From contig JBCCQY010000062.1 in NCBI GenBank assembly GCA_039208735.1, forward strand, positions 1-44,521: a stretch of DNA of 44,521 bases, in the 5' to 3' direction. This stretch comes from Myxococcota bacterium. Lineage in GTDB: Bacteria; Myxococcota_A; UBA796; GCA-2862545. Numbering within the stretch: position 1 is the stretch's first letter; each line of letters begins with the position of its first letter. This document shows, piece by piece, positions 1 through 34,510 of this stretch. The translations under genes and the position numbers were made by a program. The notes below the pieces were generated by a model. The model was not told the DNA's origin, did not search any database, and worked only from the letters and a program-made list of their open reading frames with translations.

Positions 1-2640
1 ACCGACCCGACCCTCGACGATACTGATGGCGACGGCATCTTGGACGACGACGAGGTCGCGTCGCAGGGCACCGACACCGAAACGGATCCGCTCAACGCCG
101 ATTCGGATGGCGACAACCTGTCGGACGGCGAAGAGCTGAACAATACGGGAACCAACCCGGCTCTTGCGGACACGGACGCCGATGGCCTGAACGACGACGT
201 GGAAGTCGCCGGTCCGACCGATCCGCTCGACTCCGATAGCGATGATGACGATCTGCTCGATGGGGCCGAAGTCACGCTGGGCACCGACCCGATGGTCGCC
301 GACACGGACGGCGATGGCCTGACGGACGGCGACGAGGTGAACGTCCACCAGACGCTGCCCCTCGACAACGACACCGACGACGACACCCTGTTGGATGGCG
401 AAGAACTCAACACCACCAACACGGACCCCACCCTCGCCGATACCGATGGTGACGGACTCGCCGACAACGTTGAAGTGGCGGGACCGACCGACGCGACGGT
501 CGCCGACACCGATGGCGATGGTCTAAGCGATGGCGTCGAGGTCAATGACGAAGGCACGAACCCCATCATTGCCGACACCGACGGTGACGGTCTAAGCGAT
601 GGGGCCGAAGTCAACGACGAGGGCACGGATCCTCTTGACGATGACTCCGACGACGACACCCTGTTGGACGGCGCCGAGGTCAACACCTACCAGACCGACC
701 CGAACGACGATGACTCCGATGACGATGGGCTGACCGACGATTTTGAGGTCAACTCTCCCCTCGAGCTCGACCCCAACAACGACGACACCGATGGCGACAC
801 GCTGCTCGATGGCGATGAGGTCAACAACATTGGCACGAGCCCGGTGCTCGCCGATACCGATGGCGACACCATCAACGACAACATCGAGCTGAACTCGGTG
901 CCGCCGACAAGCCCCGTGCTCGCGGACACCGATGGTGATGGTCTCAACGACGCAGCCGAAATCGCCGGGGCGACGGATCCCACGGACTCCGACACGGACG
1001 GTGACGGCCTTTCGGATGGCGACGAAGCGACCATGTTCGGGACGAGCCCGGTGGTTGCGGATACCGACGGGGACGGCCTTTCGGATGGGGCCGAAGTCAA
1101 CGGCAACCCGGCCACGAACCCGTTGGTGGTCGACACCGACGGGGACGGACTGAGCGACGGGGCCGAGGTCAACGGCAACCCGGCCACGAACCCCGCCGTC
1201 GCGGATACCGATGGGGACGGCCTTTCGGATGGGGCCGAGGTCAATGGGAATCCAGCGACCAACCCCACGCTCGCCGATAGCGATGGCGACGGCCTGGACG
1301 ACAACGTTGAGCTGAACACCACGATCACCGACCCGAACGTGGCCGACTCGGATGGTGACGGACTGTCCGACGGCGCCGAGGTCAACGGTACTCCGGCGAC
1401 CAATCCCAACCTCGTGGATACCGACGGCGATGGCCTGAACGACGATGTCGAGGTCGCGGGTCCCACCAACCCGGCGGTGGCCGATACCGACGGTGACGGC
1501 CTTTCGGATGGGGCCGAGGTCAACACGACGCTGACCAACCCCATTCTCGTCGACACGGATGGCGACGGCGTTGGAGACGGCGCCGAGCTGTCGAACGTTC
1601 CGGCGACCAATCCCTTGGTGGCCGACACCGACGGTGACAACCTCTCGGATGGCGCGGAACTCGCCGCGGGCACCAACCCCACCGAACTCGATACCGATAA
1701 TGACGGGTTGAACGACGACGTCGAGGTGAACGGGCCGACCGATCCGCTGGTCGCCGACACGGACGATGACGGCCTGTCGGACGGTGACGAAGTCATCATC
1801 CACCTGACGCTGCCCACCAACAGCGACACGGACGGCGACGGCCTGTCCGATGGGGACGAAGTCAATGGGGTCGACGGCACCGATCCGCTGCTCGCCGACA
1901 CCGATGGCGACAGCATCAACGACTTCGATGAGCTGAACGTCACCAACACCGATCCCACGCTCGCCGACACCGACAACGACGGACTCGACGATGATGTCGA
2001 GGTGGCCGGACCCACCAATCCCAACGTGGCCGACACCGACAACGACAATCTCAACGACGGCGATGAAGTCACCGAGGGGACGGACCCGCTCAACCCCGAC
2101 ACCGACGGCGACACGTTGCTCGACGGCGACGAAGTCAACCTCTACATGTCGGACCCAAACCTCACTGACACCGACGGCGACACGCTCGACGACAACGAAG
2201 AAGTGCTCGCCCTGGTTCCGCCGTTTCCCGATGATGGAATGGGCAACTCGCTGTTCGACGACACCGACCCCAACCTCGTCGACACCGATGGCGATGGCCT
2301 CGACGACGACGAAGAACTCGCACTGGTGCCGCCGACCGACCCCACGGTGGCCGATACTGATGGTGACGGGCTGTCCGATGGCGACGAGGTCAACAACCTC
2401 GCCACCAATCCAAACAACAGCGACACCGATGGTGATGGCCTCTCCGACGGCGATGAGGTCAACGTCACAGGGACGAACCCATCGCTTAGCGACACCGACG
2501 GGGATGGCCTGTCGGACGGCGACGAAGTCAACGTCCACAGTACAAGCCCGATCAACAACGACAGCGACGGCGACCTGGTCAGCGACGGTGACGAGGTCAA
2601 CCTCTACGGTTCGGATCCGCTCGACAGCACCGACGATGGC
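1..2640 (+). repeat. Tandem coding repeat, 37 units of mostly 22-24 aa, consensus T(D/N)PxxADTDGDGLSDGxEVNxxx (thrombospondin type 3-like Ca-binding)
   Basis: Counted in the translation. Three consecutive units around 1040-1260 are near-identical (DTDGDGLSDGAEVNGNPA). Confidence 0.92.
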
Positions 2641-5600
2641 ACCTTCGATCTCGAGTTGCAGCTCGAAGACCGTACGGGCCTTGTCACCATCGATGACACC
2701 ACCGGAGCGGCCGGGTCGACCCAGCTGACCCAGCCCCGCGACTCCATCAACCCCGAGACCGCCGGCAACGGCAAGGTTGATGTGCTCGACGGCAACGGCA
2801 ACGTGATTGGCGGCCTTTGGGCCAACTTCACGGGGGCTGGCTACCTCGACATGGGCCTCAACATCGACGATGCCTTCGAGTTCGATGTCAATGCGCCGAA
2901 CGCCGACACCTACACCATCACCTTCCGCTACGCGATTGCGCAGTCGTCGGGCACGAATACGCGTCCGATGGACATGACGGTGAACATGGGGGCGACGCCC
3001 ATCCTCCTCAACTTCGGGCCGACCCCGGATTGGGACCAGTGGGGTGAGCTTTCCGTCGACGTGATGTTGAACGCCGGTGTGAACACCATCCGGGTCGAAA
3101 ACAACATCACGACGGGCCCGAACCTCGACCGCGTGAACGTCAAGCGCGACCCGAACCGCATTACGCCAGTGGTTCAGCCGGGCCCTCGCAACGTCTTGGG
3201 CATCAACTTCCAGGATGGTGCGGCTTCGGTGGATCCGGACTTCGACGTCGACACGTTCGCGCCGTTCGGCTTGCGGACCAACGGTCGGTCGTACGGTTGG
3301 GTCACCGAGGCGTCCGCGACGGATGCTGACGGTACGACCAACAGCCCGATCACCGCGACCTATCCGGCCGTGGCGATTAACGAACGTACCGGAGCCCCGT
3401 TCGACTCCTACGATCCGCGCCTTACGGGCTACGCCCACTTCGACCTGCCGAGCTACCCGCAGACGGGTGACGACGGACGTGTGGCCTGGGAACTCGCCAC
3501 TCCGAATGGCTACTACGAAGTAACCGCGGCCGTCGGCGATACCGGCGGTCCAAACGATAGCGCCAACCGGCTCTTCGTCGAAGGTCAGCTCGCGACCGCA
3601 TGGCAGGCCACGACCGAGTTCAAGTCGCAGCTCGTCACTACCGTCGCCAATGTCCAGGATGGGTTCCTGACTCTGTCGGCGCAGGGCGGTACGATCACCG
3701 AGATCCAGTACCTTGAAGTGCGGGAGCTTCCCGATCTTACGCCGACCGACGGCAACCCCGCCCCCGATGACTACGCCGAGTTCACCACGCCCGAAGCGAT
3801 CGCCGGCGTGGGCTCCGGCACCACCATCGTCTCGTTGGCGGTGGGCGACGGTCTTCGCCCCGATGGTGTGGACCCGTCCTCTGACCTCATTTTGGGTGTC
3901 AACGTCGTGCCGGGCCGCGGCGGTGTGCTGCTCGCAAGCCTCACCGATGGCTCCATTCAGCTCTTCGAGACGTTGACGGGCATTGCCGTTCCCTTCACCG
4001 CGAACACCACCGGCGGGTTCGACGCGCTGACGATCAGCCCCGTCGGAAATCTAAGCGAGAACACGAGCTACACCCTTCTCATCGACGGCTTCCGGGACCG
4101 GGGTGACAACAACAACGCTCTGTTGCCGAGCCGCGAGTTCAAGCGGTTCTCCACCTCGTTCGTGACCGGAACGGCCGCCGTGATCCCCGCAACGCCGGTG
4201 GCCTTCAACGACACCCTCGAGCTGAACGGCGCGGTCGACAACGCCTTCGCGTTCACCTCGGTGGAGATGTCGCCGGCCGGTGACCAGCTCTACATCTCGA
4301 CCCTCAACGGTGAGATCAAGCGCTACGACCTGGATGCGACGACGGGCGCGCTCGACACCGCGTCCTTGCAGACGTTCACGCCGCAGGGCGACTTCGTGGT
4401 GGGCGCCAACCGGCGCGGCATCATCGGGCTCACCTTCGACCCGACCGACCCGAACACCCTGTGGATCACCGACAACTACCCCATTCCATTGTCGGGTCGT
4501 GACAACGGCGTTCCGGACTTCTCGGGCCGACTCTCCAAGGTCACGCTCGGGGCCGGCGGGTCGCTCACGAATGCGACGGTGGCGCCCTACGTTACCGGAT
4601 TCCCCCGGTCGAACGGTGACCACGTCACCAACTCGATCGAATTCCGCCTCAACCCCGCGTTCGGGACCCCCGGCGAGCCGCAGCACCTGCTGTACGTCAT
4701 CCAGGGTTCGAACACGGCGATGGGTGCACCTGACACTGCGTGGGGCCAGCGTCCCGAGCGCCTGCTGAACGCGGCCGTCCTCGAGATCGACCCGACGCTC
4801 ACGCCGCCGGCCAATGGCTTCGACATCGCGACCGAGCCGCTGCCCGCCGACGGTCAGAACCGTCGTTTCACCGACACCGACAACGACCTGAAGAACGGCG
4901 GCATCACGATTGATTCCGGACCGTTCAACGGCAACTTCCTGCACTTCGACGCGGATGGCGTGGCGACGGTCCGCTCGGGTTCGGCGGCGAACTCGACGCT
5001 GGTGCAGTCGTTCTACGACCCGTTTGCGGCCGGAGCGCCGGTGCGCATCTTCGCCCAGGGGCAGCGCAACGCCTACGACCTTGTCTGGCACAGCAATGGC
5101 TTCCTGTACGTCCCGACGAACGGCTCGGCCGCTGGCGGTAACGTGCCCGACAACCCCGCAACCGCGACCAACGAAGCGGTCAATGGGGTTGAGAAGCAGG
5201 ACGACTACTTGTTCCGCGTCGTGGCGGGAGACTACTACGGTCACCCCAATCCGCTGCGTGACCGGTTCATCCTCAACGGCGGCAACCCCACCGCAAACGT
5301 CGACCCCAATGAGGTCACGTCCTACGCCGTGGGAATTCTGCCGGAAGCGGACTACGACCTGACGGGGTCGTACTCGGTCAACGAGAACCGTTCGCCAAAC
5401 GGCGCCATCGAGTACACCAGCAACGCGTTCGGCAGCTCGCTTCAGGGTGCCGTGCTCTTCGTCGAGTACTCGGGCGGCAACGACGTTCGCGCGGTCACGC
5501 TCTTTGGTGACGGCACGGTCGATCAGGACTTTGTTCTCGGCCGCCCCGACGGCACGACCATCAACAACTACCCCGACCCGCTCGACGTCACGCAGGACGC

Positions 5601-8019
5601 TTCGGGTCGGCTGTACGTGGCGACCCTCAACCGTGGGAACGGCCAGAGCCAGCTGATTCGTTTTGACCCCGCTCCGGGCCAGACCCCCACGGATACGTCA
5701 GCCGACGAAGACGGCAACCTGGCCCTCACGGTGGTCGATGCGCTCACCCCCGCAGCGGTGGTGTTTGGCCTCAATGGTGTGGATGCCGACATCGTGTCTG
5801 TGTCCTCGAGTGTGGATAGCGGAGCGGCGCAGGCGGTCACGCTGGATGCCAACGATCAGTTCACCCTCGACCTGTCGTCGGTAACGGGCACCGCCACGGT
5901 CGACGTGACGGTCACCGATGACGACGCCAACACGGCCACGGTCACGGTGATGGTCACGCCGGGTACGAACCCCACGCCATCGGCGTTGTTCATCGATGCG
6001 GTGGCTTCCGAATGGGTCATCCTCGACACCGATGACGGCTCGATCAAGCGCATCATCAGCGACCCCACCACGCACGAAAGCACGACAGCCAATGATGCCA
6101 ATGGCGATGGCCTCAACGACAACTACGATGGCCAGGGCTACATCGACGTCAACGGAGGCGCCGAGCCCAAGGCCACGGTCGACATCAACGTCGCGACGGC
6201 TGGCCAGTACGACATCGCGTTCCGCCTCGCAAACGGCAGCAACAACAATCGCCCCATGACGTTCACGCTCGGCTCACAGACGCAGACGATTGCGGACACC
6301 AAGTCGGGCGATTTTACGACCTGGCAGGACTTCACGATTCCGCTCGACCTCACCGCAGGCAGCAACGTCGTGACGATCACCCAGGACACCGGGGCGGGTG
6401 GTCCGAACTTCGATAGCCTCACCGCGACCTTCGTGGCTCCGTCGTCTTCGGCGCCCAACAGCGGCACTCAGATGGTGAACGGCATCCAGAACACGTTCTG
6501 GGAAGAGGATCTCGCTACCCTGTCGGGCGGTGCGATCGTCGGTACGGCGGCGCGCAACCAGAGCGGAACGGGGTACATCGACTTTGTCGACACCCCGAAC
6601 GTGGTCGACCCCGACCAGACGGTCGAGTGGACCGTATCGGTGCCAACCGCAGGAACCTACAACGCGGCCATCATCTACGCGCTTGCCGTCTCAAAGGGTG
6701 CGCGTCCCATGGCCCTCGAGGTCAATGGGGTGGGTCAAGGCACACTGCCGTTCGTCGGTCAGAGCAACGCCAATGAAGACGATTGGTTCCCCGAGACGTT
6801 CCAGGTCGCGTTGAACGCGGGCATCAACACCATCGCGGTGACCGCGCCGGGTGGCGCCGGTCCCAATGTGGACTTCCTGCGGATCGAAGACACGCCGGTG
6901 CCGCAGTTCCCCACGAACCCGGACGCGGACATCGAGATCGAAAGCCTCGATCCCGGTTTCTACAGCAACCGCCTGCACTTCAGCTTCCTGGTCAACAACA
7001 GCGCATCGGCCAACAATCGGTCGTTCAAGGACACCGCCACGGTGCGCATCTCGAACTCGGGAACCGTTAACCTGGACTTCTTCGATGCGACGATCGCGGG
7101 CTTCTTCACGCTGCAGAACCCGACGGCCTTCCAGAACCTGACCCTGGCTCCCGGCGCGAGCCTCGATGTGGTTGTGGTCTTCGACGGCAACGCGGTCCCC
7201 CCGCGGAGCAACAACCAAAACGGCGTGGTCAACGGAACGCTCACGCTCACCACGAACGACGCCGAAGACCAGCTCTCGGTCATCGACCTCTCGGGCTTTT
7301 GGCAGGCACGCGACGAGGGGGGCCAGGAGCCCAACCTCAACGAAGTCTGGGAAGTCATGGGCTTCAGCACCCGCGTGGTCGGACTTCCCTTCGGAGGAGG
7401 AGGCGGAAACTCGATCCTCGACTTCTGGGATGTCTACCTACCCTACGACCTGAATGATCCCACCGAAGTACTCGAGCCGGTCTGGCAGATCGCGCCCGGC
7501 GTGACCCAGGCCCGCATGACCCAGATCGCAGCCTTCCATGGCCCTGGCGGGTCGAACATGGGCATTCACGAGCCCGGCGACAAGGGCGACGACGATCGCT
7601 TCTGGAACCACGACGGCAGCCACAATCAGCGCATCATGCCGCTCCAGGGCAACGGTGACTTCTGCACTGAACTCTTCGACAATGCCCAGATCCCCGACGC
7701 GTGGACCGGTCCCGACACCTTCAGCTTTGAAGTGAGCGGGCTTTCGACCAACCCGACCCTCAATCCGACCGGCGCGGGTGCGCCTTCGCAGGCGGATCTG
7801 AACAACCGGTACCCCGGCTACACCGTCACCAACGGCAACGTCTCCGACCCGCAAGGGAACGCGGTGCCAGACGGCTACACGGTGCGGATGTTCCAAGCGA
7901 AGGATCCTGCCGGAAACCCGATTCCCAACACCTACTTGGGCGTAATGGACTTCACCGGCATCAACTACGACTACAACGACAACATGTTCCTCGTTACCGG
8001 CGTCACCCCGGCCCCCTAA
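1..8019 (+). CDS. Giant secreted/surface protein (5'-truncated, >2670 aa): Ca-binding DxDxDG repeat stalk, several CBM6/CBM35-like modules, Ig-like domains and a GSDH-like beta-propeller
   Basis: Frame is open from base 1 (TDPTLDDTDGDGILDDDE), so the TTG at 40 is not the true start. 37 acidic repeats are followed by three modules with GxGY(L/I)D...GPN(L/F/V)D, a Big_5-like LSENTSYTLLIDG segment, a propeller motif RNAYDLVWHSNGFLYVPTNG and C-terminal YDYNDNMFLV. Confidence 0.85.
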   Translation, partial: TDPTLDDTDGDGILDDDEVASQGTDTETDPLNADSDGDNLSDGEELNNTGTNPALADTDADGLNDDVEVAGPTDPLDSDSDDDDLLDGAEVTLGTDPMVADTDGDGLTDGDEVNVHQTLPLDNDTDDDTLLDGEELNTTNTDPTLADTDGDGLADNVEVAGPTDATVADTDGDGLSDGVEVNDEGTNPIIADTDGDGLSDGAEVNDEGTDPLDDDSDDDTLLDGAEVNTYQTDPNDDDSDDDGLTDDFEVNSPLELDPNNDDTDGDTLLDGDEVNNIGTSPVLADTDGDTINDNIELNSVPPTSPVLADTDGDGLNDAAEIAGATDPTDSDTDGDGLSDGDEATMFGTSPVVADTDGDGLSDGAEVNGNPATNPLVVDTDGDGLSDGAEVNGNPATNPAVADTDGDGLSDGAEVNGNPATNPTLADSDGDGLDDNVELNTTITDPNVADSDGDGLSDGAEVNGTPATNPNLVDTDGDGLNDDVEVAGPTNPAVADTDGDGLSDGAEVNTTLTNPILVDTDGDGVGDGAELSNVPATNPLVADTDGDNLSDGAELAAGTNPTELDTDNDGLNDDVEVNGPTDPLVADTDDDGLSDGDEVIIHLTLPTNSDTDGDGLSDGDEVNGVDGTDPLLADTDGDSINDFDELNVTNTDPTLADTDNDGLDDDVEVAGPTNPNVADTDNDNLNDGDEVTEGTDPLNPDTDGDTLLDGDEVNLYMSDPNLTDTDGDTLDDNEEVLALVPPFPDDGMGNSLFDDTDPNLVDTDGDGLDDDEELALVPPTDPTVADTDGDGLSDGDEVNNLATNPNNSDTDGDGLSDGDEVNVTGTNPSLSDTDGDGLSDGDEVNVHSTSPINNDSDGDLVSDGDEVNLYGSDPLDSTDDGTFDLELQLEDRTGLVTIDDTTGAAGSTQLTQPRDSINPETAGNGKVDVLDGNGNVIGGLWANFTGAGYLDMGLNIDDAFEFDVNAPNADTYTITFRYAIAQSSGTNTRPMDMTVNMGATPILLNFGPTPDWDQWGELSVDVMLNAGVNTIRVENNITTGPNLDRVNVKRDPNRITPVVQPGPRNVLGINFQDGAASVDPDFDVDTFAPFGLRTNGRSYGWVTEASATDADGTTNSPITATYPAVAINERTGAPFDSYDPRLTGYAHFDLPSYPQTGDDGRVAWELATPNGYYEVTAAVGDTGGPNDSANRLFVEGQLATAWQATTEFKSQLVTTVANVQDGFLTLSAQGGTITEIQYLEVRELPDLTPTDGNPAPDDYAEFTTPEAIAGVGSGTTIVSLAVGDGLRPDGVDPSSDLILGVNVVPGRGGVLLASLTDGSIQLFETLTGIAVPFTANTTGGFDALTISPVGNLSENTSYTLLIDGFRDRGDNNNALLPSREFKRFSTSFVTGTAAVIPATPVAFNDTLELNGAVDNAFAFTSVEMSPAGDQLYISTLNGEIKRYDLDATTGALDTASLQTFTPQGDFVVGANRRGIIGLTFDPTDPNTLWITDNYPIPLSGRDNGVPDFSGRLSKVTLGAGGSLTNATVAPYVTGFPRSNGDHVTNSIEFRLNPAFGTPGEPQHLLYVIQGSNTAMGAPDTAWGQRPERLLNAAVLEIDPTLTPPANGFDIATEPLPADGQNRRFTDTDNDLKNGGITIDSGPFNGNFLHFDADGVATVRSGSAANSTLVQSFYDPFAAGAPVRIFAQGQRNAYDLVWHSNGFLYVPTNGSAAGGNVPDNPATATNEAVNGVEKQDDYLFRVVAGDYYGHPNPLRDRFILNGGNPTANVDPNEVTSYAVGILPEADYDLTGSYSVNENRSPNGAIEYTSNAFGSSLQGAVLFVEYSGGNDVRAVTLFGDGTVDQDFVLGRPDGTTINNYPDPLDVTQDASGRLYVATLNRGNGQSQLIRFDPAPGQTPTDTSADEDGNLALTVVDALTPAAVVFGLNGVDADIVSVSSSVDSGAAQAVTLDANDQFTLDLSSVTGTATVDVTVTDDDANTATVTVMVTPGTNPTPSALFIDAVASEWVILDTDDGSIKRIISDPTTHESTTANDANGDGLNDNYDGQGYIDVNGGAEPKATVDINVATAGQYDIAFRLANGSNNNRPMTFTLGSQTQTIADTKSGDFTTWQDFTIPLDLTAGSNVVTITQDTGAGGPNFDSLTATFVAPSSSAPNSGTQMVNGIQNTFWEEDLATLSGGAIVGTAARNQSGTGYIDFVDTPNVVDPDQTVEWTVSVPTAGTYNAAIIYALAVSKGARPMALEVNGVGQGTLPFVGQSNANEDDWFPETFQVALNAGINTIAVTAPGGAGPNVDFLRIEDTPVPQFPTNPDADIEIESLDPGFYSNRLHFSFLVNNSASANNRSFKDTATVRISNSGTVNLDFFDATIAGFFTLQNPTAFQNLTLAPGASLDVVVVFDGNAVPPRSNNQNGVVNGTLTLTTNDAEDQLSVIDLSGFWQARDEGGQEPNLNEVWEVMGFSTRVVGLPFGGGGGNSILDFWDVYLPYDLNDPTEVLEPVWQIAPGVTQARMTQIAAFHGPGGSNMGIHEPGDKGDDDRFWNHDGSHNQRIMPLQGNGDFCTELFDNAQIPDAWTGPDTFSFEVSGLSTNPTLNPTGAGAPSQADLNNRYPGYTVTNGNVSDPQGNAVPDGYTVRMFQAKDPAGNPIPNTYLGVMDFTGINYDYNDNMFLVTGVTPAP

Positions 8020-9406: not shown

Positions 9407-10846
9407 TCACCCGTCGCGGTCGATGCCGGCGAACGGGTTGAACTTCAAGGTTTCCTGACCGTCACCAAGGGCGGACGGGTCCATGGCCGGGGGATTGCGG
9501 ATGCGATCGAGGGCCCCCTTGAAGGACGTCCAGATTGCGTCGGCGGACTCTCGAGGCACGTGCCCGGTCTGCCGCCAGCGACGTTGCAGGTCCCGAATCA
9601 CCGCGTCGGGATCTTCCACCCCTTCGTCGGCCAGCCGGTTGGCTTGTTCGATCAGGTCCTGCCGTGCGCGTAAACTTTCGGCGTGCATGGCCTCGCGTTT
9701 GGCACGGCGCCCCTCGAACACCGCATCAGCGGCGGTCCGAAAGCGCGTCCACACTGCGTCTCCCTTCTCGCCACGAACGCCCCCCACCTCCTTCCACTGG
9801 GCCTGGAGTCGCTTAATCGCCTCGGCGGCCTTTTCCGGGTCGTCCGATCGGGAAAGAGCTTCGGCCGAGTCGGCGAATGCCTCAAGGCGGACCAGCCGGG
9901 CGGCCTGTTCCTCGTCGCGACGCGCGAACACCGCATCCATCACCGTGCGAAAACGGGTGGTCTGGGCTTTCGCGACGTCTCGGGCCACGCGCGGCGCGTC
10001 CCGCCACTGCTTTTGAAGGGCCTTGGCCTGGCTGATGGCCGCGCGGAGGTCCGGCAAGCCAACGAGTCCCTCGGCGTTCTCGATGAGCGCTTCCCGCATC
10101 GCGATGTGCTTCTTTTCTTCTTCGACCTTGGGGTCCACCATTGCGTCGATCCGAGCCGTCACCTTCGCGAGATGCTCGCCGTAGGCCGCTTCGAGTCGGT
10201 CGCGGTCGGATGGAGGAATGGGCTTGAGCGCTCGCCACTCGCGAACCAGCCGACTTCGGGCGGCGACCAGCTTGTCGCGGGGGGCTTCTGCATCTGCGAT
10301 CGATTCGTCGAGCTCGGTGAGCAAGGCTTCGAGCTTGGGCACCACGATCCAGGCCAGGGTGGCCTGGTCTCGCTGTTTCGGCGATGGCCGGTTCGGGCCA
10401 TCGTTGGCCGCCACCGGAGCCGGAGCGGGTGCCGGTTTGGGGGCCGGAGCCGGTCGGGGGGCTGGGGCCTCGGCTTCTTCGGGTTCAGGCTCCCGTTTGG
10501 GCTTGGGGCTCTCCGCAGCTTCCGCGGGCAACAAGCTTCGAGGGGCCGCAGGTTCAGGTTTGGGGGAGGGCTTGGGGATCGTGGGACCCTTCACCTCGAC
10601 CGGATCCTCTTTGAACCACCCCGGCGGCTGCTTTCGCTGGCGCCGTTTCTGCTTCTTCTTCTTTCGCTTCTTCGGTTTGTCCTCTACGGCAGCATCGTTC
10701 GCCTTTGCGACCTTCGGGGCCGAGGAGGACGCTTCGGCGGCTTCCGTCGTGGCGGGCGCCTCTGCCGTCTCCTCTGTTGCTTCACTCGCGGACGGCGCGG
10801 GTTCGGGCTTTCGCATCCCGAGCGCACCGCGAATCCAGTCCCACAT
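9407..10846 (-). CDS. DUF349 domain-containing protein with long Pro/Ala/Lys-rich N-terminal region
   Basis: Repeated helical units LQxxW+xxGxV...WxxF+xAxDxVF typical of DUF349. Start is ATG 10846 or TTG 10852. Confidence 0.8.
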   Translation of the reverse strand: MWDWIRGALGMRKPEPAPSASEATEETAEAPATTEAAEASSSAPKVAKANDAAVEDKPKKRKKKKQKRRQRKQPPGWFKEDPVEVKGPTIPKPSPKPEPAAPRSLLPAEAAESPKPKREPEPEEAEAPAPRPAPAPKPAPAPAPVAANDGPNRPSPKQRDQATLAWIVVPKLEALLTELDESIADAEAPRDKLVAARSRLVREWRALKPIPPSDRDRLEAAYGEHLAKVTARIDAMVDPKVEEEKKHIAMREALIENAEGLVGLPDLRAAISQAKALQKQWRDAPRVARDVAKAQTTRFRTVMDAVFARRDEEQAARLVRLEAFADSAEALSRSDDPEKAAEAIKRLQAQWKEVGGVRGEKGDAVWTRFRTAADAVFEGRRAKREAMHAESLRARQDLIEQANRLADEGVEDPDAVIRDLQRRWRQTGHVPRESADAIWTSFKGALDRIRNPPAMDPSALGDGQETLKFNPFAGIDRDG

Positions 10847-11027
10847 GCCCAACGGCCACCTCCATCCGGCGGAGGTAACCGCCCCACCGGGAGGTCACCG
10901 CTTTGGCGATGGTCCCCGTCGATGAGAAGCGTCGTTGGGTGTCGTTCGTGGCTCCGCTCCACGATCCCCAACTCGAGCGGATCAGGGACAGGAACCGACG
11001 CTACCCAGACGGGCAGTGTCGTCCGTA

Positions 11028-16496: not shown

Positions 16497-17075
16497 TCAT
16501 TCGAGACAGGCGGCAGCGGCCTTGCGGGAGACGCCATCGCCGTTGGCCGCGGGGCGCAACTCGATCACTCGCCGGTCGCCGAAGTTGTGGCTGCGGACCA
16601 AGTAGAAGCCGCTGATGTGGAAGGTGGCGGATTTGCCGCCTTCGCTCGAGGCGACGCAGTTGACGTCGTTGAACGGATGCGTCGTCCGTGTGCCGGGGAA
16701 GACTTCGAGGTCGACCTCGGCCTTCCCTACTTTGCCGATGTTGGGCAGATAGTACTCAACGCCCGAAGCCATCGGGAAGGAACCGAGCTGCCCCTTACGA
16801 CAGTCGACGGGGTATCGCCGCATGTCGCCTTCGTTGGAGGTAAGGATCGCGGCCGGCTGACTTCCGTCGACGGTGACCTTGATGTCGACGCAGACGAGCG
16901 AGTGGTTGGCGAGCTTATCGAGGCTTTTGAGCGTGGCCCCGGTGGCGCGGTTTGCCTCTTTCCGAGCGTCGATCGGGACCGTGAGGTCGATCGCGTCGTC
17001 CTGGGCGTACGCCGAAGGTGCGAGCCACAGCCCGACGGCGCTGATCAGCGCAATTGCGCCTCGGATGTCGTTCAT
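16497..17075 (-). CDS. Hypothetical secreted protein (192 aa, 4 Cys)
   Basis: Signal peptide ending AYA|Q; strong RBS AGGAGG; 30 nt downstream of the GH19 gene. Confidence 0.75.
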   Translation of the reverse strand: MNDIRGAIALISAVGLWLAPSAYAQDDAIDLTVPIDARKEANRATGATLKSLDKLANHSLVCVDIKVTVDGSQPAAILTSNEGDMRRYPVDCRKGQLGSFPMASGVEYYLPNIGKVGKAEVDLEVFPGTRTTHPFNDVNCVASSEGGKSATFHISGFYLVRSHNFGDRRVIELRPAANGDGVSRKAAAACLE

Positions 17076-17105
17076 GCTCCCTCCTGTGCGGACTCGGCCG
17101 TAGCC

Positions 17106-18281
17106 TCACCGACGGTTTTTCTTCTGCTGCCGACGCTTCTTGCGTTGACGCTTCTTGCGCTTGCGGCGTCGCTTCTTTCGCTGGCGAATCTGCTTTTTGG
17201 TCGGCGGCGTGCGCAGGTTGCCCTGGGCGGCGGCTGCAGCCCCTCCACCGACGACGCCGGTGAGATTCCGAATGGGTCCGATCGGGTTGGAAAAGTCGAT
17301 GGACCCTTGGTTGAGTTCGTAGTCGTCCTCTTCGGAGACCGGGCCGACGCGACGGCCTTCGTCGATCGCGTCGGGAGCGCGGCGGCGAACCTTGCCGTCG
17401 GCGCCTGTGACTCGGCCCGCGGGCACGTCGGTCATGCGAGCGGTGGCCTCCTCGGCCGAGGACGCGTGGGGAGCCGACGCCGGAACCGCCTTGATGAACT
17501 GGTGGATTTCGAGCGCGAAGTCAGCGAGAAGATCCCGCTTGTCGAGGCCATTCACCGTGCGCCGGGCTTCGAGGTACCCAATGCGGTCATCGGTAATGTC
17601 TGCGTTGATGTAGCTGGCGAGGCCTTTGCCGTATTCGGCGTTGTACCAACCTCGAACCATCCCCTCCATGAGGGCGGCCGTCGAGACCCACTCCCGAAGG
17701 GCCAGATCGGCCTGGTTGACGAGCCTCCGGTCGAGGTCCGCGAACCGGTCCCCATTTTGGGTACGGGACAGCTCAATGCCCACCCGCCAATAGTTGACGA
17801 GGTGGGTGAGCTGGACTTGCCCACGTCCGTAGTAGGACTGACCCGTCGTGGAATCGGGCTCCCAGTAGCGCTGTCGCACGAGCCGCTTGCGCCACAGTCC
17901 TTCCAAGTAGTCAAGAGCGCACTCGGCATCCTCGCAGAGGCCCTCTCGGACGGGGAAGAGGTTGCCCCCGGTCTCCCAAAACACCGTCGCGATGATGTAG
18001 GCAAGCCAGCGAGTATCCGTCAGTTCATCGCTCGTGTCCCAGCGGTTGAGGATGCCTTGCATGGCGTTGAAGGACTTTCGCGAGAGCTGTTTGGGATCTT
18101 GGGCAAGTGGATGGGTTCGGTTGAACCTTCGAAACCCTTCATAGAAGGCTCGCCTATCGATGCACTCCGCTTTCGTGCACCGATCGTTTCCCTGAGCACT
18201 GGCGTTGGACGCCGTGCCTACGAGGACTGCGACCAACCAGGCCAGGATGACGTGTACGACCAGCGTTCCGCGACTTCGCAT
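17106..18281 (-). CDS. Secreted glycoside hydrolase family 19 (endolysin/lysozyme-like) protein with polybasic C-terminal tail
   Basis: ATG 18281 with GGAGG RBS; signal peptide ending ASA|Q; WLAYIIATVFWET, PVRE, YYGRGQVQLTHLVNY (GH19 signature) and ARRTVNG. Confidence 0.85.
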   Translation of the reverse strand: MRSRGTLVVHVILAWLVAVLVGTASNASAQGNDRCTKAECIDRRAFYEGFRRFNRTHPLAQDPKQLSRKSFNAMQGILNRWDTSDELTDTRWLAYIIATVFWETGGNLFPVREGLCEDAECALDYLEGLWRKRLVRQRYWEPDSTTGQSYYGRGQVQLTHLVNYWRVGIELSRTQNGDRFADLDRRLVNQADLALREWVSTAALMEGMVRGWYNAEYGKGLASYINADITDDRIGYLEARRTVNGLDKRDLLADFALEIHQFIKAVPASAPHASSAEEATARMTDVPAGRVTGADGKVRRRAPDAIDEGRRVGPVSEEDDYELNQGSIDFSNPIGPIRNLTGVVGGGAAAAAQGNLRTPPTKKQIRQRKKRRRKRKKRQRKKRRQQKKNRR

Positions 18282-25200: not shown

Positions 25201-26046
25201 ATGGGACTGACTGTCAACACCAATATGGCTTCGCTCGGTGCGATCTCAAACCTCAATAACGTACAGGGAAACCTGCAGAAGTCGCTAGCGCGCATCAGCT
25301 CCGGCATGCGGATCACGCGTGCCGGCGATGATGCCGCGGGCCTCGGCGTGGCCGAGAACCTGTCGGCGGCAAACCGCTCGCTGAAGATGGCGATGCGGAA
25401 CACCAATGACGGCATCTCGGTCGTGCAGACCGCAGAAGGTGCGGCGGGTGAGATCGGCAACATCCTGAAGCGGATGCGCGAACTCGCGGTCCAGTCGGCT
25501 TCGGAGACGCTCGAGAACCAGGAACGCACCTACGTCAACGACGAGTTCGCGGCGCTCGCAAGCGAAATCGACCGGATCGCAGAAGTGACCGAGTTCAACG
25601 GCGTGCCCCTGGGCAACGCCGCGGCCGCAGCCCTGGCCAACCTCCAGGTCCAGGTGGGCATCGATGGGTCGGCGAATAGCCGGATCGCCATCGCGTTGTC
25701 CAACCTCCGTTCGGACTCAGCGAACATGGCTGTGGACACCGGTTCCATCGACCTGCTGACCGCGGGCAACGCCCAGACGGCGATCGGCGGAATCGACTCC
25801 GCTATCGACTTCATCAACACCGTTCGTTCGGGCTACGGTGCCACGCAGAACCGGCTCGAAGCCGCTCTGCGTCAAACCGACAACTACTTCCTCAACCTCA
25901 AGGATTCGGAAAGCCGGATCCGCGACACGGACTTCGCCTTCGAGTCCGCTGAGCTGTCGAAGTACCAGATCATGCAGCAGTCCGGTGTGGCCGTTCTCGC
26001 CCAGGCGAAGGGAATCTTCGCCCAGGCGGCCCAGCTCATCCAGTAA
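25201..26046 (+). CDS. fliC: Flagellin (minimal, 281 aa)
   Basis: N-terminal VNTN...RISSGMRI..A.DDAAG...RNTNDGISVVQTAEGA..EI..IL.RMRELAVQS; C-terminal G A.QNRLE...SRIRDTDFA.E...L.K.QI.QQ...A.LAQA. Confidence 0.96.
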   Translation: MGLTVNTNMASLGAISNLNNVQGNLQKSLARISSGMRITRAGDDAAGLGVAENLSAANRSLKMAMRNTNDGISVVQTAEGAAGEIGNILKRMRELAVQSASETLENQERTYVNDEFAALASEIDRIAEVTEFNGVPLGNAAAAALANLQVQVGIDGSANSRIAIALSNLRSDSANMAVDTGSIDLLTAGNAQTAIGGIDSAIDFINTVRSGYGATQNRLEAALRQTDNYFLNLKDSESRIRDTDFAFESAELSKYQIMQQSGVAVLAQAKGIFAQAAQLIQ

Positions 26047-31474: not shown

Positions 31475-32260
31475 TCAGGGTGCGCTGGCCGGATTGCGGA
31501 CCAGTGCATCGGGAAGTGGGTACACCACCAACTCGTCGTAAACGTAGTACCCAGTGGGAAGCTCACCAATGGGCGCGTCGTCGACATCGGCGGCGAGTAG
31601 GCGTTGGTCCGTCAGGACCGCACCGGCTTCAAGCTCGAATCCCTGCCAGTAAGCCAGGGGCTCAACCCCCAATTCGTAGGGTTCTTCGCCTTCTCGGTCG
31701 CCCTGGAGCGTCGTCTTCGCCATGAAGCCTGGGGTTGCTTCAAGTTCAGAGAGCAAGCCCGGCTGAAGCATCGCTCCGGTCATGGCAAAGCGCCAGGTGA
31801 GTGCGCTCCAATAGGTCAGGGCGTCGTCATCCTCAAGGTACTGAGTGTCGAGATAGCCCTGTTCGGGACAATTGGTCGTGGTCGTCGCGGTGTTTCCAGG
31901 GATCGAAAGCTGCCATTGGCGACCTGATGTGTCGTCAAGAGCGTCCGTGGCCAGTCCAGCCACGCGCACCGCGACCTGACAGTCCGGAAGATCGAGGCCA
32001 GCATCCGCCGATAGCGTAAGAACGACCGCCGAAACAAAACCTGGTTCGCCATCGATCGTGGTCGGATCCACAATCGCCTTCGCCGGGTTGTCCCACGCGA
32101 TGTACGCATTGATCCGGAGCGTCTTCGCAAACGCAGGGATAGGTGGAGGTGGCTCCGGCATCGTCGCGCTGTCGTCAGGCAACGCTTCAATACGGCCGCC
32201 TGAACAGCCAATGCAACCGAGCAAACCGAATCCGAGGCCAAGGCGTGCGCACGACATCAT
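31475..32260 (-). CDS. Hypothetical lipoprotein, paralog of 32741..33736
   Basis: Lipobox-like IGC; shares AWDN, QWQL.I, YW.AL.W, GEEP and LPTGYY..D with the paralog. Confidence 0.75.
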   Translation of the reverse strand: MMSCARLGLGFGLLGCIGCSGGRIEALPDDSATMPEPPPPIPAFAKTLRINAYIAWDNPAKAIVDPTTIDGEPGFVSAVVLTLSADAGLDLPDCQVAVRVAGLATDALDDTSGRQWQLSIPGNTATTTTNCPEQGYLDTQYLEDDDALTYWSALTWRFAMTGAMLQPGLLSELEATPGFMAKTTLQGDREGEEPYELGVEPLAYWQGFELEAGAVLTDQRLLAADVDDAPIGELPTGYYVYDELVVYPLPDALVRNPASAP

Positions 32261-32276
32261 CGGCGCTCCTTAACGC

Positions 32277-32741
32277 TCACTGGGATGGAGCGAGGACCAA
32301 CGTAGCGGGACGGTCTTCGTTGAGCAGAATGGGCTCAATCAGGTTGTTCAAGCATCGGTCGAACGTGACCGCCGACAACTCGGGCGCCGTGACTTGAGCG
32401 GTCCACAACCCCTCGTCGGTGGGCGTGTAGGACGCCACCAGTTCGATCGACTCGCCGAACGTCGTTCCATCGTGGAGGCGGGCCAGTTCGAAACAGCCCT
32501 CGATTTCTCGAGAGCGGATCGAAAGCGCGCTTTCCAAGTCGCGGGCCCGGTTGAGTCGAGTCACCATTTGATCGACGCGCTCGGGCTTACTCGCAACCTG
32601 GGCTCGCTCCCGCCGAACGTCATCTCCGACGGGGGCCAGGTTGGGATTAGACGGCATCTCACGCGGGCTGAACACCCAAAGGCCGAGGGTACCGAGCACC
32701 CCCAACCCGATGAGGACGAGCAGCCAGCGTGACACGCTCAT
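32277..32741 (-). CDS. Hypothetical single-pass membrane protein with a possible divergent AgmX/PglI-like C-terminal domain
   Basis: N-terminal TM helix; IEGCFE...G.....V...FDRCL Cys pair spaced as in AgmX/PglI domains; TGATG overlap with the upstream gene. Confidence 0.6.
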   Translation of the reverse strand: MSVSRWLLVLIGLGVLGTLGLWVFSPREMPSNPNLAPVGDDVRRERAQVASKPERVDQMVTRLNRARDLESALSIRSREIEGCFELARLHDGTTFGESIELVASYTPTDEGLWTAQVTAPELSAVTFDRCLNNLIEPILLNEDRPATLVLAPSQ

Positions 32742-33736
32742 CAGTTACCGGTGTCGCTCGTGTCGCCGGCCGTATCGGTATCGGTGTCGGCATCCGTATC
32801 GCTGTCGGTATCGGCGTCCGTATCGGTGTCGGTGTCGGCATCCGTATCGGTGTCGGTGTCGGCATCCGTGTCGGCGTCACCATCGGAGTCGGTCAGACCC
32901 GAGTTGGTGCGCTCGAGGACTTCCGGCAGGAACTGGATGACGAAGCCATCGAACTGGTAGTAGCCGGTGGGCAGGCCGCCAGCGGCGACGTCGGTGATCT
33001 CAGCGGCGGTGTACTGACGGTTTTCGATGCCGTCATTCCCGAAGCGCACGTCGCGGCCTTCGAGTTCCCAACCACGGATCGTGAAGAAGTTCGCGAGGTC
33101 TTCGGACTGGGGAATGCCGAAGGGCTCTTCGCCAGCCAGGTTTGCCTGGACCCAGAACTGCAGGTCGATGTCGTCGGAGTCGCTCAAGAACTCTTCGAGG
33201 TCTTCATCGAGGTTCTCGTCGAACACCGTGAGCTGCCACGGCAGGGCGCCCCAATACTCAAGCGAGCTGTTCTTGCCGACGAACTGCTCTTCGGAGAAGC
33301 CCTGGTTGATGCAGGTGGTATCGACGGGCTTGAAGCCTTCGGGGAACTGGGGCCCCTCGCCCATCACGCCTTCCTGGATGTTCAGCTGCCACTGGGCACC
33401 CGGAACGAACGGCTCAGCCTCGAATCCTTCCAACTGGATGCGGACGCGGCACTGGTTCGCCTCGGAAGCGTCCAGCCCGTCTTCGTTGTACAGCTCGAAG
33501 ATGATGAAGGAGTTGAAGCCCTCTTCACCGTCGACCGTGTAGTCCGTGATCACCCGGTTCTCGTTGTCCCACGCGAAGATGGCCGTGTAGGTGATGCCTC
33601 GGACGAGCTTGGCCGGCTCTTCGAACACGGAGTCACCGCCGGGTGGGGGCGGAGGCGGGGTATCGCTCGGCTCGTCATCACCGCCGCTGCAGGCGATAAA
33701 CATGGAAACAAGCGGAACGACAGTGAGTAGGCGCAT
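32741..33736 (-). CDS. Hypothetical acidic lipoprotein with C-terminal Asp-Thr/Asp-Ala repeat tail
   Basis: Lipobox FIAC; poly-Pro linker; tail DSDGDADTDADTDTDTD...; strongly GC3-biased codons. Confidence 0.8.
   Translation of the reverse strand: MRLLTVVPLVSMFIACSGGDDEPSDTPPPPPPGGDSVFEEPAKLVRGITYTAIFAWDNENRVITDYTVDGEEGFNSFIIFELYNEDGLDASEANQCRVRIQLEGFEAEPFVPGAQWQLNIQEGVMGEGPQFPEGFKPVDTTCINQGFSEEQFVGKNSSLEYWGALPWQLTVFDENLDEDLEEFLSDSDDIDLQFWVQANLAGEEPFGIPQSEDLANFFTIRGWELEGRDVRFGNDGIENRQYTAAEITDVAAGGLPTGYYQFDGFVIQFLPEVLERTNSGLTDSDGDADTDADTDTDTDADTDTDTDADTDSDTDADTDTDTAGDTSDTGN
32745..32893 (-). repeat. Hexanucleotide coding repeat encoding (D-T/A/S)n
   Basis: Tandem gtatcg/gtgtcg/gcatcc units on the + strand. 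Confidence 0.85.
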
Positions 33737-33895: not shown

Positions 33896-34510
33896 CTACG
33901 GGCGTGGAACGCTTGCAAAGCCACGAAGCAGTTCGGATGCAAGCGTTCCATCGGCGGACCCGTTCTCTCCGCGACGCCGCAGGGCGTCGTTGATGCGGTG
34001 TCCACGGCCGTCATGACGGTCGTACGGACGCACCAGGTTCATGACGAACCGAGACCGTCCTCGACTGGTTCCTGCGTGAGCGAGGTGAACCGTGCCATCT
34101 TTGGTCACGCCCAGCACGATGGCAATGTGGGACAGCTCGTCGTCCTTTCGCCCATTTCCGTTCCGGTCATAGGTGTGATCGAAGAACGCGAGGTCCCCGG
34201 TTTGGGGGACGGCCTGTCGGTGGGTCCAACCCTTCGAGGCCGCAACGTCCCACAACATTGCGGTCGAGCCCCGGAGCGGTAGACCCACCCGTGCGAAGGT
34301 CGCTTCGACAAAGCCTGAGCAGTCGTCTCGGAAGCCCTTCGGGTAGTGCTTGAGCGTGTAGGCCGCGACGCGGGCGATCTGTTCACCAAACGGCGGTTCT
34401 GGCGTCGCAGCACGATGCTGCGAAGGTTGAACGAAGGCGGTAGAGGCCTGTGCCTTGACGCAACCGGTGGTCACCAGCCCCCACACCAACCAGCCGGCTC
34501 GGAGCGTCAT
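33896..34510 (-). CDS. NlpC/P60 (CHAP-like) cell-wall peptidase lipoprotein
   Basis: Lipobox TTGC; DCSGFV catalytic Cys, GDLAFFD and SHIAIV catalytic His. Confidence 0.88.
   Translation of the reverse strand: MTLRAGWLVWGLVTTGCVKAQASTAFVQPSQHRAATPEPPFGEQIARVAAYTLKHYPKGFRDDCSGFVEATFARVGLPLRGSTAMLWDVAASKGWTHRQAVPQTGDLAFFDHTYDRNGNGRKDDELSHIAIVLGVTKDGTVHLAHAGTSRGRSRFVMNLVRPYDRHDGRGHRINDALRRRGENGSADGTLASELLRGFASVPRP

Follow-up and report, generated by a model that had tools for sequence, protein, structure and literature searches.

A GH19 lysozyme-like protein of a Myxococcota bacterium, P0001, joins a predicted Sec signal peptide and a catalytic domain of putative phage endolysin type to a strongly basic C-terminal tail, and its gene is followed by a second gene, P0038, for a predicted exported protein. 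We favor, at a rough probability of 0.45, the reading that P0001 is a lysozyme of phage origin that the cell exports and uses against other bacteria, with the tail docking it on anionic surfaces and the partner P0038 shielding the producer's own wall. The window (the whole stretch of DNA that was analysed, 44,521 nt) contains the following features of this system.

17106..18281, minus strand: GH19 lysozyme-like gene with basic tail (P0001), based on the ORF, a GC3 of 0.76, 11 close homologs and nucleotide differences mostly at third codon positions
18195..18281, minus strand: predicted Sec signal peptide, aa 1-29, based on sequence, a Kyte-Doolittle (KD) value of 2.96 and homologs
17484..18194, minus strand: GH19 catalytic domain, putatively of endolysin (Acinetobacter/Rhizobium-phage) type, aa 30-266, based on PHROG_181, hhalign and fold
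17973..17975, minus strand: E103 of the GH19 domain, in the motif WET (W102-E103-T104)
17943..17945, minus strand: E113 of the GH19 domain, in the motif PVRE
within 17484..18194, minus strand: GH19 residues T159, N163 and N244 (domain aa 30-266)
17301..17483, minus strand: linker, aa 267-327, variable and leaning acidic, in which a short VGP motif is conserved, based on identity and pLDDT
17199..17300, minus strand: conserved pre-tail motif, aa 328-361, with a Pro/Gly turn, an 18-residue uncharged Gly/Ala run and TPPT
17109..17198, minus strand: polycationic tail, aa 362-391, net +23, a predicted single non-amphipathic helix, based on composition, AlphaFold and homologs
16497..17075, minus strand: partner gene P0038, predicted to encode a 192-aa exported all-beta orphan with conserved cysteines, with its own ribosome-binding site, 30 nt after the GH19 stop

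The 391-aa P0001 is the product of an ORF that runs from 18281 to 17106 on the minus strand, with a GGAGGG motif resembling a ribosome-binding site 8 nt upstream. A Sec signal peptide had been proposed in the first-pass annotation, and the N-terminus, as read from the sequence alone without SignalP, agrees with that prediction: a basic n-region is followed by a hydrophobic h-region (best 15-mer KD 2.96) and an A-x-A site. A hydrophobic N-terminal stretch recurs in 9 of the 11 close homologs, the remaining two being without an N-terminus. Export by the Tat route was considered and rejected, as there is no twin-Arg in P0001 and one occurs in just three of the homolog signal peptides.

The last 30 residues of P0001 do include 23 Lys or Arg (nt 17109-17198), as the first-pass annotation had counted, together with no acidic and only one hydrophobic residue (3%). 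A frameshift or assembly artefact as the origin of this tail, a possibility raised at the outset, is ruled out by the tails of homologs, by gap-free independent contigs and by third-position differences. The homolog search, in which the best 7,996 candidates were scored, yielded 37 proteins including the query; a basic C-terminal tail of net +8 to +25 is present in 11/11 of the closest homologs (39-66% identity) and in none of the other 25 homologs. A contig from a run of another study (X2) spans 16562-17198, the whole tail, and one from run X3 spans 16904-17149, part of the tail, both without gaps or indels, and 16 of the 20 listed nucleotide differences in the GH19 gene fall at third codon positions. 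P0034 has a basic patch (14/30) at its N-terminus.

Nor are basic tails a habit of this genome. When ORFs of the 9.4-Mb genome were crudely called and filtered by codon-position GC, leaving 9,696 coding-like ORFs, P0001 had the highest K/R count in the C-terminal 30-mer, 23, with the runner-up at 16. The second most basic 15-mer among the scanned coding-like ORFs is an internal 12/15 K/R patch in a DUF349 protein of the window (9407-10852, minus strand). GH19 matches occur in 147 of the fetched loci, 143 of which include the stop codon; among these, at least 17 K/R are found in the tail only for the P0001 gene and three copies of its ortholog in G014, a genome classed in the window's genus, while the C-termini of the remaining 139 complete ORFs reach at most 10. 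In a quick tree of 109 rows with midpoint root, the 12 tailed proteins form one clade (SH-aLRT 94), in which the two most basal members have net +8 and the crown +12 to +25, and the sister of this clade (support 98) is a tail-less G014 paralog, all of these lying among phage and proteobacterial GH19s. This paralog (G014:C49; L060, 1633-2568, minus strand) has a signal peptide and Arg-rich insertions, lies near a kinase gene and an ECF sigma gene with no partner gene within the 16 kb fetched, and offers a natural control for the tail.

Between the catalytic domain and the tail, a flexible linker had been annotated. This description stands for aa 267-327, where identity among homologs is 12-40% (aa 267-309) and 0-18% (aa 317-327), and the AlphaFold pLDDT drops below 50 from about residue 300. 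It does not stand for aa 328-361, the conserved Gly/Ala motif, which the first-pass annotation had missed along with the conserved downstream gene. Identity over aa 328-361 is 68-82% in 7 of the 11 homologs and 15-44% in the other 4, and catalytic-domain identity in those 7 is 62-74%. Because this stretch is as conserved as the catalytic domain, the module appended to the GH19 domain appears to be motif plus polycation, more than a floppy tail. The 18-residue Gly/Ala run, which precedes the polybasic helix in 8 of the 11 homologs and is missing in three, has a mean KD of 0.66 and a best 19-mer KD of 0.94, and is too weakly hydrophobic for a normal membrane helix. Myxo-CTERM and GlyGly-CTERM-type sorting signals consist of a motif, a transmembrane helix and a short basic cluster; a signal of this type was rejected on the 19-mer value of only 0.94, and no NCBIfam model of a C-terminal sorting signal matched P0001 at E<=0.1. 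A search for the pre-tail motif on other proteins, weak in that it missed known members, returned three matches among 120 candidates, all of them family members. In the AlphaFold model an arm of low confidence leads to the tail, which forms a single helix (362-390) with a hydrophobic moment of 0.13, i.e., not an amphipathic cationic terminal helix; with the tail, the calculated pI of the mature protein (about 41 kDa) rises from 5.75 to 9.9.

This anatomy invites comparison with Artilysins, and a strict reading as a natural Artilysin, in which the free enzyme kills intact Gram-negative cells as the tail pulls it through the outer membrane, was considered. The tail, aided by the Gly/Ala segment, would displace the cations that bridge LPS, and its unusual length would have evolved to cope with the ionic strength of seawater. 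A polycationic nonapeptide on the GH19 endolysin OBPgp279 is reported to kill Pseudomonas aeruginosa, longer linkers being helpful (PMC4161244), and positive C-termini are described as frequent in natural lysins active on Gram-negative cells (PMC11003714, PMC11929351). The terminal polycation on a putative peptidoglycan hydrolase (+23 over 30 residues, with basic tails in 11/11 close homologs), the uncharged run before the polybasic helix in most homologs and the charges of basal versus crown members agree with such a reading. However, the tail is 3% hydrophobic with a low hydrophobic moment, vs 45% hydrophobic in the LysAB2 peptide; NaCl is reported to impair lysins fused to cationic permeabilising peptides (PMC11222872), and the DNA can be traced in metagenomes from marine sites and microbial mats, a saline habitat; one of these, X1, may be the window's source. 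C-terminal fusions are described as generally weaker than N-terminal ones (PMC4161244), the mature protein has about 41 kDa, and the producer's own outer membrane would be exposed as well. We therefore regard the strict reading as unlikely, and its fullest form, a natural Artilysin that evolved from a captured endolysin of a phage, withstands seawater, crosses prey outer membranes and has a partner representing a new inhibitor family of undescribed fold, as quite improbable. Surface docking or retention accounts for the same anatomy with fewer assumptions than outer-membrane crossing.

The first-pass annotation had taken the enzyme itself for a lysozyme-like GH19 of phage type that acts on peptidoglycan, and PHROG_181, the alignment to the endolysin Abtn-4 and the structural matches point the same way. 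P0001 has no match over the cut-off to Pfam PF00182; because that model matches most of the distant homologs, we read its absence from P0001 as divergence, and the GH19 identity rests on the match to the PHROG_181 endolysin family (E 1.7e-17), the homologs and the predicted fold. The AlphaFold model (pLDDT ~95 over the GH19 domain) has the two-lobed helical fold of GH19. Its top structural match is the putative phage endolysin 9MS7 (Z 14.2, rmsd 2.9, 173 aligned), followed by the SPN1S endolysin (4OK7; Z 13.0), 7R6S (12.9) and TseP (PDB 8XCL; 12.6), with 9EOI and bacterial chitinases tied at 12.4. Judged by title or family, all of the aligned matches at ranks 1-39 belong to GH19, and the top five are phage or effector lysozymes. 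Below the top match, endolysin and chitinase structures are nearly tied (Z 13.0-12.4 vs 12.4), a point against the lysozyme reading that we favor, and Foldseek E-values, none of them below 0.001, place chitinases first.

For the distinction between endolysin and chitinase types, sequence is more decisive than structure. Phage records matching at E<=1e-3 number 184, holin-adjacent endolysins among them, with tblastn identity up to 39%. Aligned by hhalign to Abtn-4 (185 aa), the gene for which sits behind a holin in Acinetobacter phage D2, the family profile covers 172 columns at 27% identity (probability 99.9%, E 1.4e-34), and P0001 has in common with it both glutamates and the motifs AYxxAT..HET and AR.I.NG. 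The structural neighbours of P0001 bear PG_binding_1, LysM and SH3/CHAP domains. By sequence, phage endolysins are nearer relatives of P0001 than chitinases are; we assign it to the Acinetobacter-phage type, and its substrate is very probably peptidoglycan. A chitinase with a basic tail would be compatible with a family that includes chitinases, with the Z of 12.4 and first Foldseek places of bacterial loopless chitinases, and with the plant chitinases that are phmmer's best PDB matches over a 37-residue motif. Yet P0001 has no Cys at the chitinase-specific positions 97/105 and no chitin-binding module, and the proteins related to it in sequence are endolysins of phages or carry peptidoglycan-binding domains, making a chitinase highly improbable. 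The loop-3 disulfide C97/C105 described for chitinases (PMC8547705) is absent here: Trp follows Y139, and there is no Cys beyond residue 121.

The GH19 signature noted in the first pass is intact, and both of its candidate catalytic glutamates, E103 and E113, are invariant in 37/37 aligned sequences, as are G152-R153-G154, Q157, N163, Y164 and N244; T159 is kept in at least 90% of these 37. The acid, the base, the water-positioning Thr/Ser, the GRG-x2-Q-x-T-x3-NY motif (with YYGRG at residue 150) and the C-terminal N(G) are all present. The +1-subsite His before the first catalytic Glu is replaced by Trp (W102, before E103) in P0001 and in 10 of the 11 close homologs, and this replacement may alter activity. 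Residues Y95/T99/T104/R240/V243 correspond, by motif offset and by eye rather than by the profile of the paper, to Y41, T45, T50, R183 and V186, minority residues of the ELYS type at 9-12% each in Table 1 of PMC8547705. Relative to the ELYS pattern I33/R109/G118/L-Y173 plus His48, the motif offset gives G147 at G118, P142 at R109 and W102 at His48, and Acinetobacter endolysins are themselves described as outliers for this pattern (PMC8547705). A nearby GH19 clade (P0018, P0019 from Duganella, and P0021) has Arg before the catalytic Glu, with signal-peptide-like N-termini in P0018 and P0019, and is apparently another group of domesticated, exported endolysins. Other GH19s of the order (L057, L061 of G025, and L144-L147) are of unrelated architecture, either multidomain frames of ~1,000 aa or frames of ~420 aa whose N-termini are long, and have no basic tail.

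The partner gene directly follows the GH19 gene in the two genomes where adjacency is seen directly, the window genome and G014. It accompanies 9 of the 11 tailed clusters, where association beyond these genomes, for the other eight, is judged from equal-sized longest contigs; these tie the partner to seven tailed clusters directly, plus P0012/P0051 (9,288), and the P0010 cluster to P0047 (12,762). Twelve close homologs of the partner were found, the four unmatched ones lying on contigs of 1.0-1.7 kb, and a profile search widened the family to 37 representatives. All 14 of the 14 nucleotide differences in the partner gene are at third codon positions, and its product has a signal peptide in its sequence. 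The protein has no Pfam, PHROG, NCBIfam or PDB match. Its model is all-beta at pLDDT 91, with no Foldseek match at E<=0.001, a best Z of 4.4 among 48,161 chains (weak OB-like matches) and no known inhibitor among the structural matches listed. An ADP-ribosyltransferase-like fold was rejected as below the bar (TM 0.44-0.48 for a model at pLDDT 0.51, Z about 3). Complex prediction for the GH19 domain and the partner scored 0.00 in two runs, which counts neither way.

A conserved adjacent gene for an exported protein, as in effector-immunity pairs, fits a weapon plus self-protection, and the partner is a candidate periplasmic inhibitor or helper. That it inhibits lysozyme is a tentative guess by analogy with the Xanthomonas pair XAC2609/XAC2610. 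The partner profile found no member in the 49 genomes with distant GH19s, a set without a positive control, and one in a phylum sample of 401, the window's own genome. Shorter stand-alone relatives with no GH19 nearby occur at G000:C34:40253-40741 (L148) and G012:C9 (L155), the former with a lipoprotein-like signal and located behind an FAD-oxidoreductase-like gene.

Under the favored reading of an exported lysozyme with a docking tail, P0001 would be exported through Sec to the periplasm, where the partner would inhibit or escort it, because a periplasmic peptidoglycan hydrolase would otherwise attack the producer's own wall, and it would then be released by type II secretion or in vesicles. 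The +23 helix on its ~95-residue arm would bind LPS, teichoic acids or exposed walls, taking the role of the peptidoglycan-binding, LysM or SH3 domains of its relatives, and P0001 would cut peptidoglycan once this is reachable, i.e., in Gram-positive cells and in Gram-negative cells that other factors have opened or the tail has partly loosened. The individual elements have reported precedents: the GH19 effector XAC2609 lyses its producer when periplasmic immunity is absent (PMC10933484), GH19 lysozymes are secreted by myxobacteria (PMC9098779), a polycationic peptide improves a Gram-positive lysin too, including its salt tolerance (PMC5075790), and Abtn-4 is reported to kill both Gram-negative and Gram-positive cells (PMC7936296). 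Against this reading, the partner family occurs alone as well and resembles no known lysozyme inhibitor, and no partner lies within the 16 kb fetched around the sister paralog in G014, which has a signal peptide but no tail.

The genomic setting is that of host genes. The first-pass annotation had seen no holin or phage genes nearby, and Pfam likewise found no such families among the 40 window ORFs, PHROGs having covered the two cassette proteins only. By Pfam, the pair is flanked in the window by host genes, and a prophage lysis cassette was rejected on these host genes and on the position of the G014 ortholog between flagellin and the partner gene. Gene order is common to G014 and the window, with no synteny beyond yceI between the window and three genus relatives. 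A scan of the locus for promoters and terminators gave nothing above shuffles, and no RNA dataset was among the listed holders of this DNA. Two close homologs of P0001 carry the name Myxococcota bacterium, on which the analysis based the host's placement. The full ortholog is present in 2/5 genus and 2/49 family genomes, many of them incomplete, a patchy distribution as expected of an accessory gene, and there was no further tailed copy among 154 genomes of the order.

The host genome has GspD and GspE matches over the cut-off, indicating type II secretion, as well as four RcpC/CpaB matches (Tad); TssC was not found in this genome, which is 93% complete. Predation by the host is no more than plausible, because Tad systems, reported to serve prey killing in Myxococcus xanthus, also serve adhesion (PMC10849154). 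Other window genes include a flagellin (25201-26046, plus strand), which together with an FlhA-type gene elsewhere in the genome (G000:C13) suggests a flagellated lineage member, and an open-ended giant protein of more than 2,670 aa (1-8019, plus strand) with about 20 bacterial TSP3 repeats and CBM35/CBM6, likely a surface or secreted adhesin or enzyme. A CHAP/NlpC-P60 protein with a lipoprotein-like N-terminus (33896-34510, minus strand) may be another wall hydrolase of the window, and two similar-looking orphan lipoprotein-like genes without Pfam match lie at 31475-33736 (minus strand), one with a long Asp/Thr repeat tail at its end.

The tail could hold P0001 at the producer's inner membrane, because basic stretches are reported to slow Sec transport, lowering its rate and efficiency (PMC6028853). 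The enzyme might then remodel the producer's own wall, with the tail stalled in or behind the Sec channel or bound to anionic lipids, tethering the enzyme to the inner membrane on its long arm, and the partner acting as a regulator. The Arg-flanked 18-residue uncharged run with its polybasic end echoes C-terminal anchors, and in G014 the gene and flagellin are divergently oriented. Such self-directed remodelling is nevertheless doubtful, since the run has little hydrophobicity and three of the 11 homologs lack it, no sorting model matches, the distribution over genus and family is unlike that of housekeeping enzymes, and an ABC transporter cluster separates the GH19 gene from flagellin in the window.

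A non-amphipathic Arg/Lys-rich helix suits polyanion binding. P0001 might accordingly be a scavenging or biofilm enzyme that digests the peptidoglycan of dead cells, with the tail binding extracellular DNA or acidic polysaccharides and so retaining the enzyme within the mat matrix or at the surface of the producer, and microbial-mat metagenomes are among the holders of the DNA. This use would leave the conserved pre-tail motif unexplained, and it differs from the docking reading mainly in the target, dead vs live cells, which sequence cannot separate; we judge it distinctly improbable.

Parts of the docking-lysozyme arrangement have each been described before: GH19 lysozymes that myxobacteria secrete, endolysins with cationic termini, and effector-immunity pairs built on GH19. 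P0001 belongs to the same GH19 subtype as the Acinetobacter-phage endolysins (Abtn-4, LysAB2; ELYS 6 in the GH19 Engineering Database), for which activity on intact Gram-negative cells by way of a cationic region has been reported. These phage enzymes are cytoplasmic and depend on a holin, whereas P0001 adds a signal peptide, an arm of ~95 aa and a separate, non-amphipathic +23 tail, and has Trp in place of the +1-subsite His. The LysAB2 'amphipathic helix' (113-145; +4, 45% hydrophobic) aligns inside the catalytic domain of P0001, at about aa 189-221, and is not the counterpart of the tail. Artilysins (PCNP-OBPgp279 and the LoGT series; Art-240) are, like P0001, built from a peptidoglycan hydrolase, a linker and a K/R peptide (PMC4161244, PMC5075790). 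As described there, they are engineered, with a 9-residue peptide, linkers of 4-18 residues and a usually N-terminal position; in contrast, the P0001 tail is natural, 30 residues long and C-terminal, follows a ~95-aa linker with a conserved motif and belongs to a protein that its producer is predicted to export.

Within the Myxococcota, C25GH19B of Corallococcus silvisoli and LlpM of M. xanthus are described as chromosomal endolysin-like GH19 proteins with lysozyme activity, and C25GH19B has, like P0001, a signal peptide (PMC9098779). It is reported as a ~20-kDa protein of the Microcystis-phage type with a Glu spacing of 9 (E79/E88), vs 10 in P0001, and the descriptions available for the two proteins, which rather than an alignment set them apart from P0001, do not mention a tail or a partner gene. 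XAC2609/XAC2610 resemble P0001/P0038 in that the gene of a bacterial GH19 lysozyme adjoins one for an exported protein (PMC10933484), and the T6SS effector TseP is a structural neighbour. XAC2609, described as lacking a signal peptide, and TseP travel by T4SS and T6SS, respectively, whereas P0001 has a predicted Sec signal and no XVIPCD domain, and its partner matches no known inhibitor in sequence, nor clearly in fold. In the full-text literature searched, outside which most subscription papers lie, no natural GH19 that is exported by Sec and has such a polycation appended came up.

On the favored reading, P0001 would be a naturally evolved counterpart of constructs that until now have come from protein engineering; polycation-tagged lysins are an engineering idea with salt as a known weakness. 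The twelve natural tailed versions, from +8 to +25 and with at least P0001 from marine settings, provide a ready series for probing tails at high ionic strength. If the Artilysin reading were true, the 30-mer tail may be an answer to a saline habitat, an attractive novel case. The partner, a confidently folding protein without a clear structural match, is a testable candidate for a new lysozyme inhibitor. Even if the tail only anchors the enzyme, it would be a new and simple targeting module that replaces a wall-binding domain.
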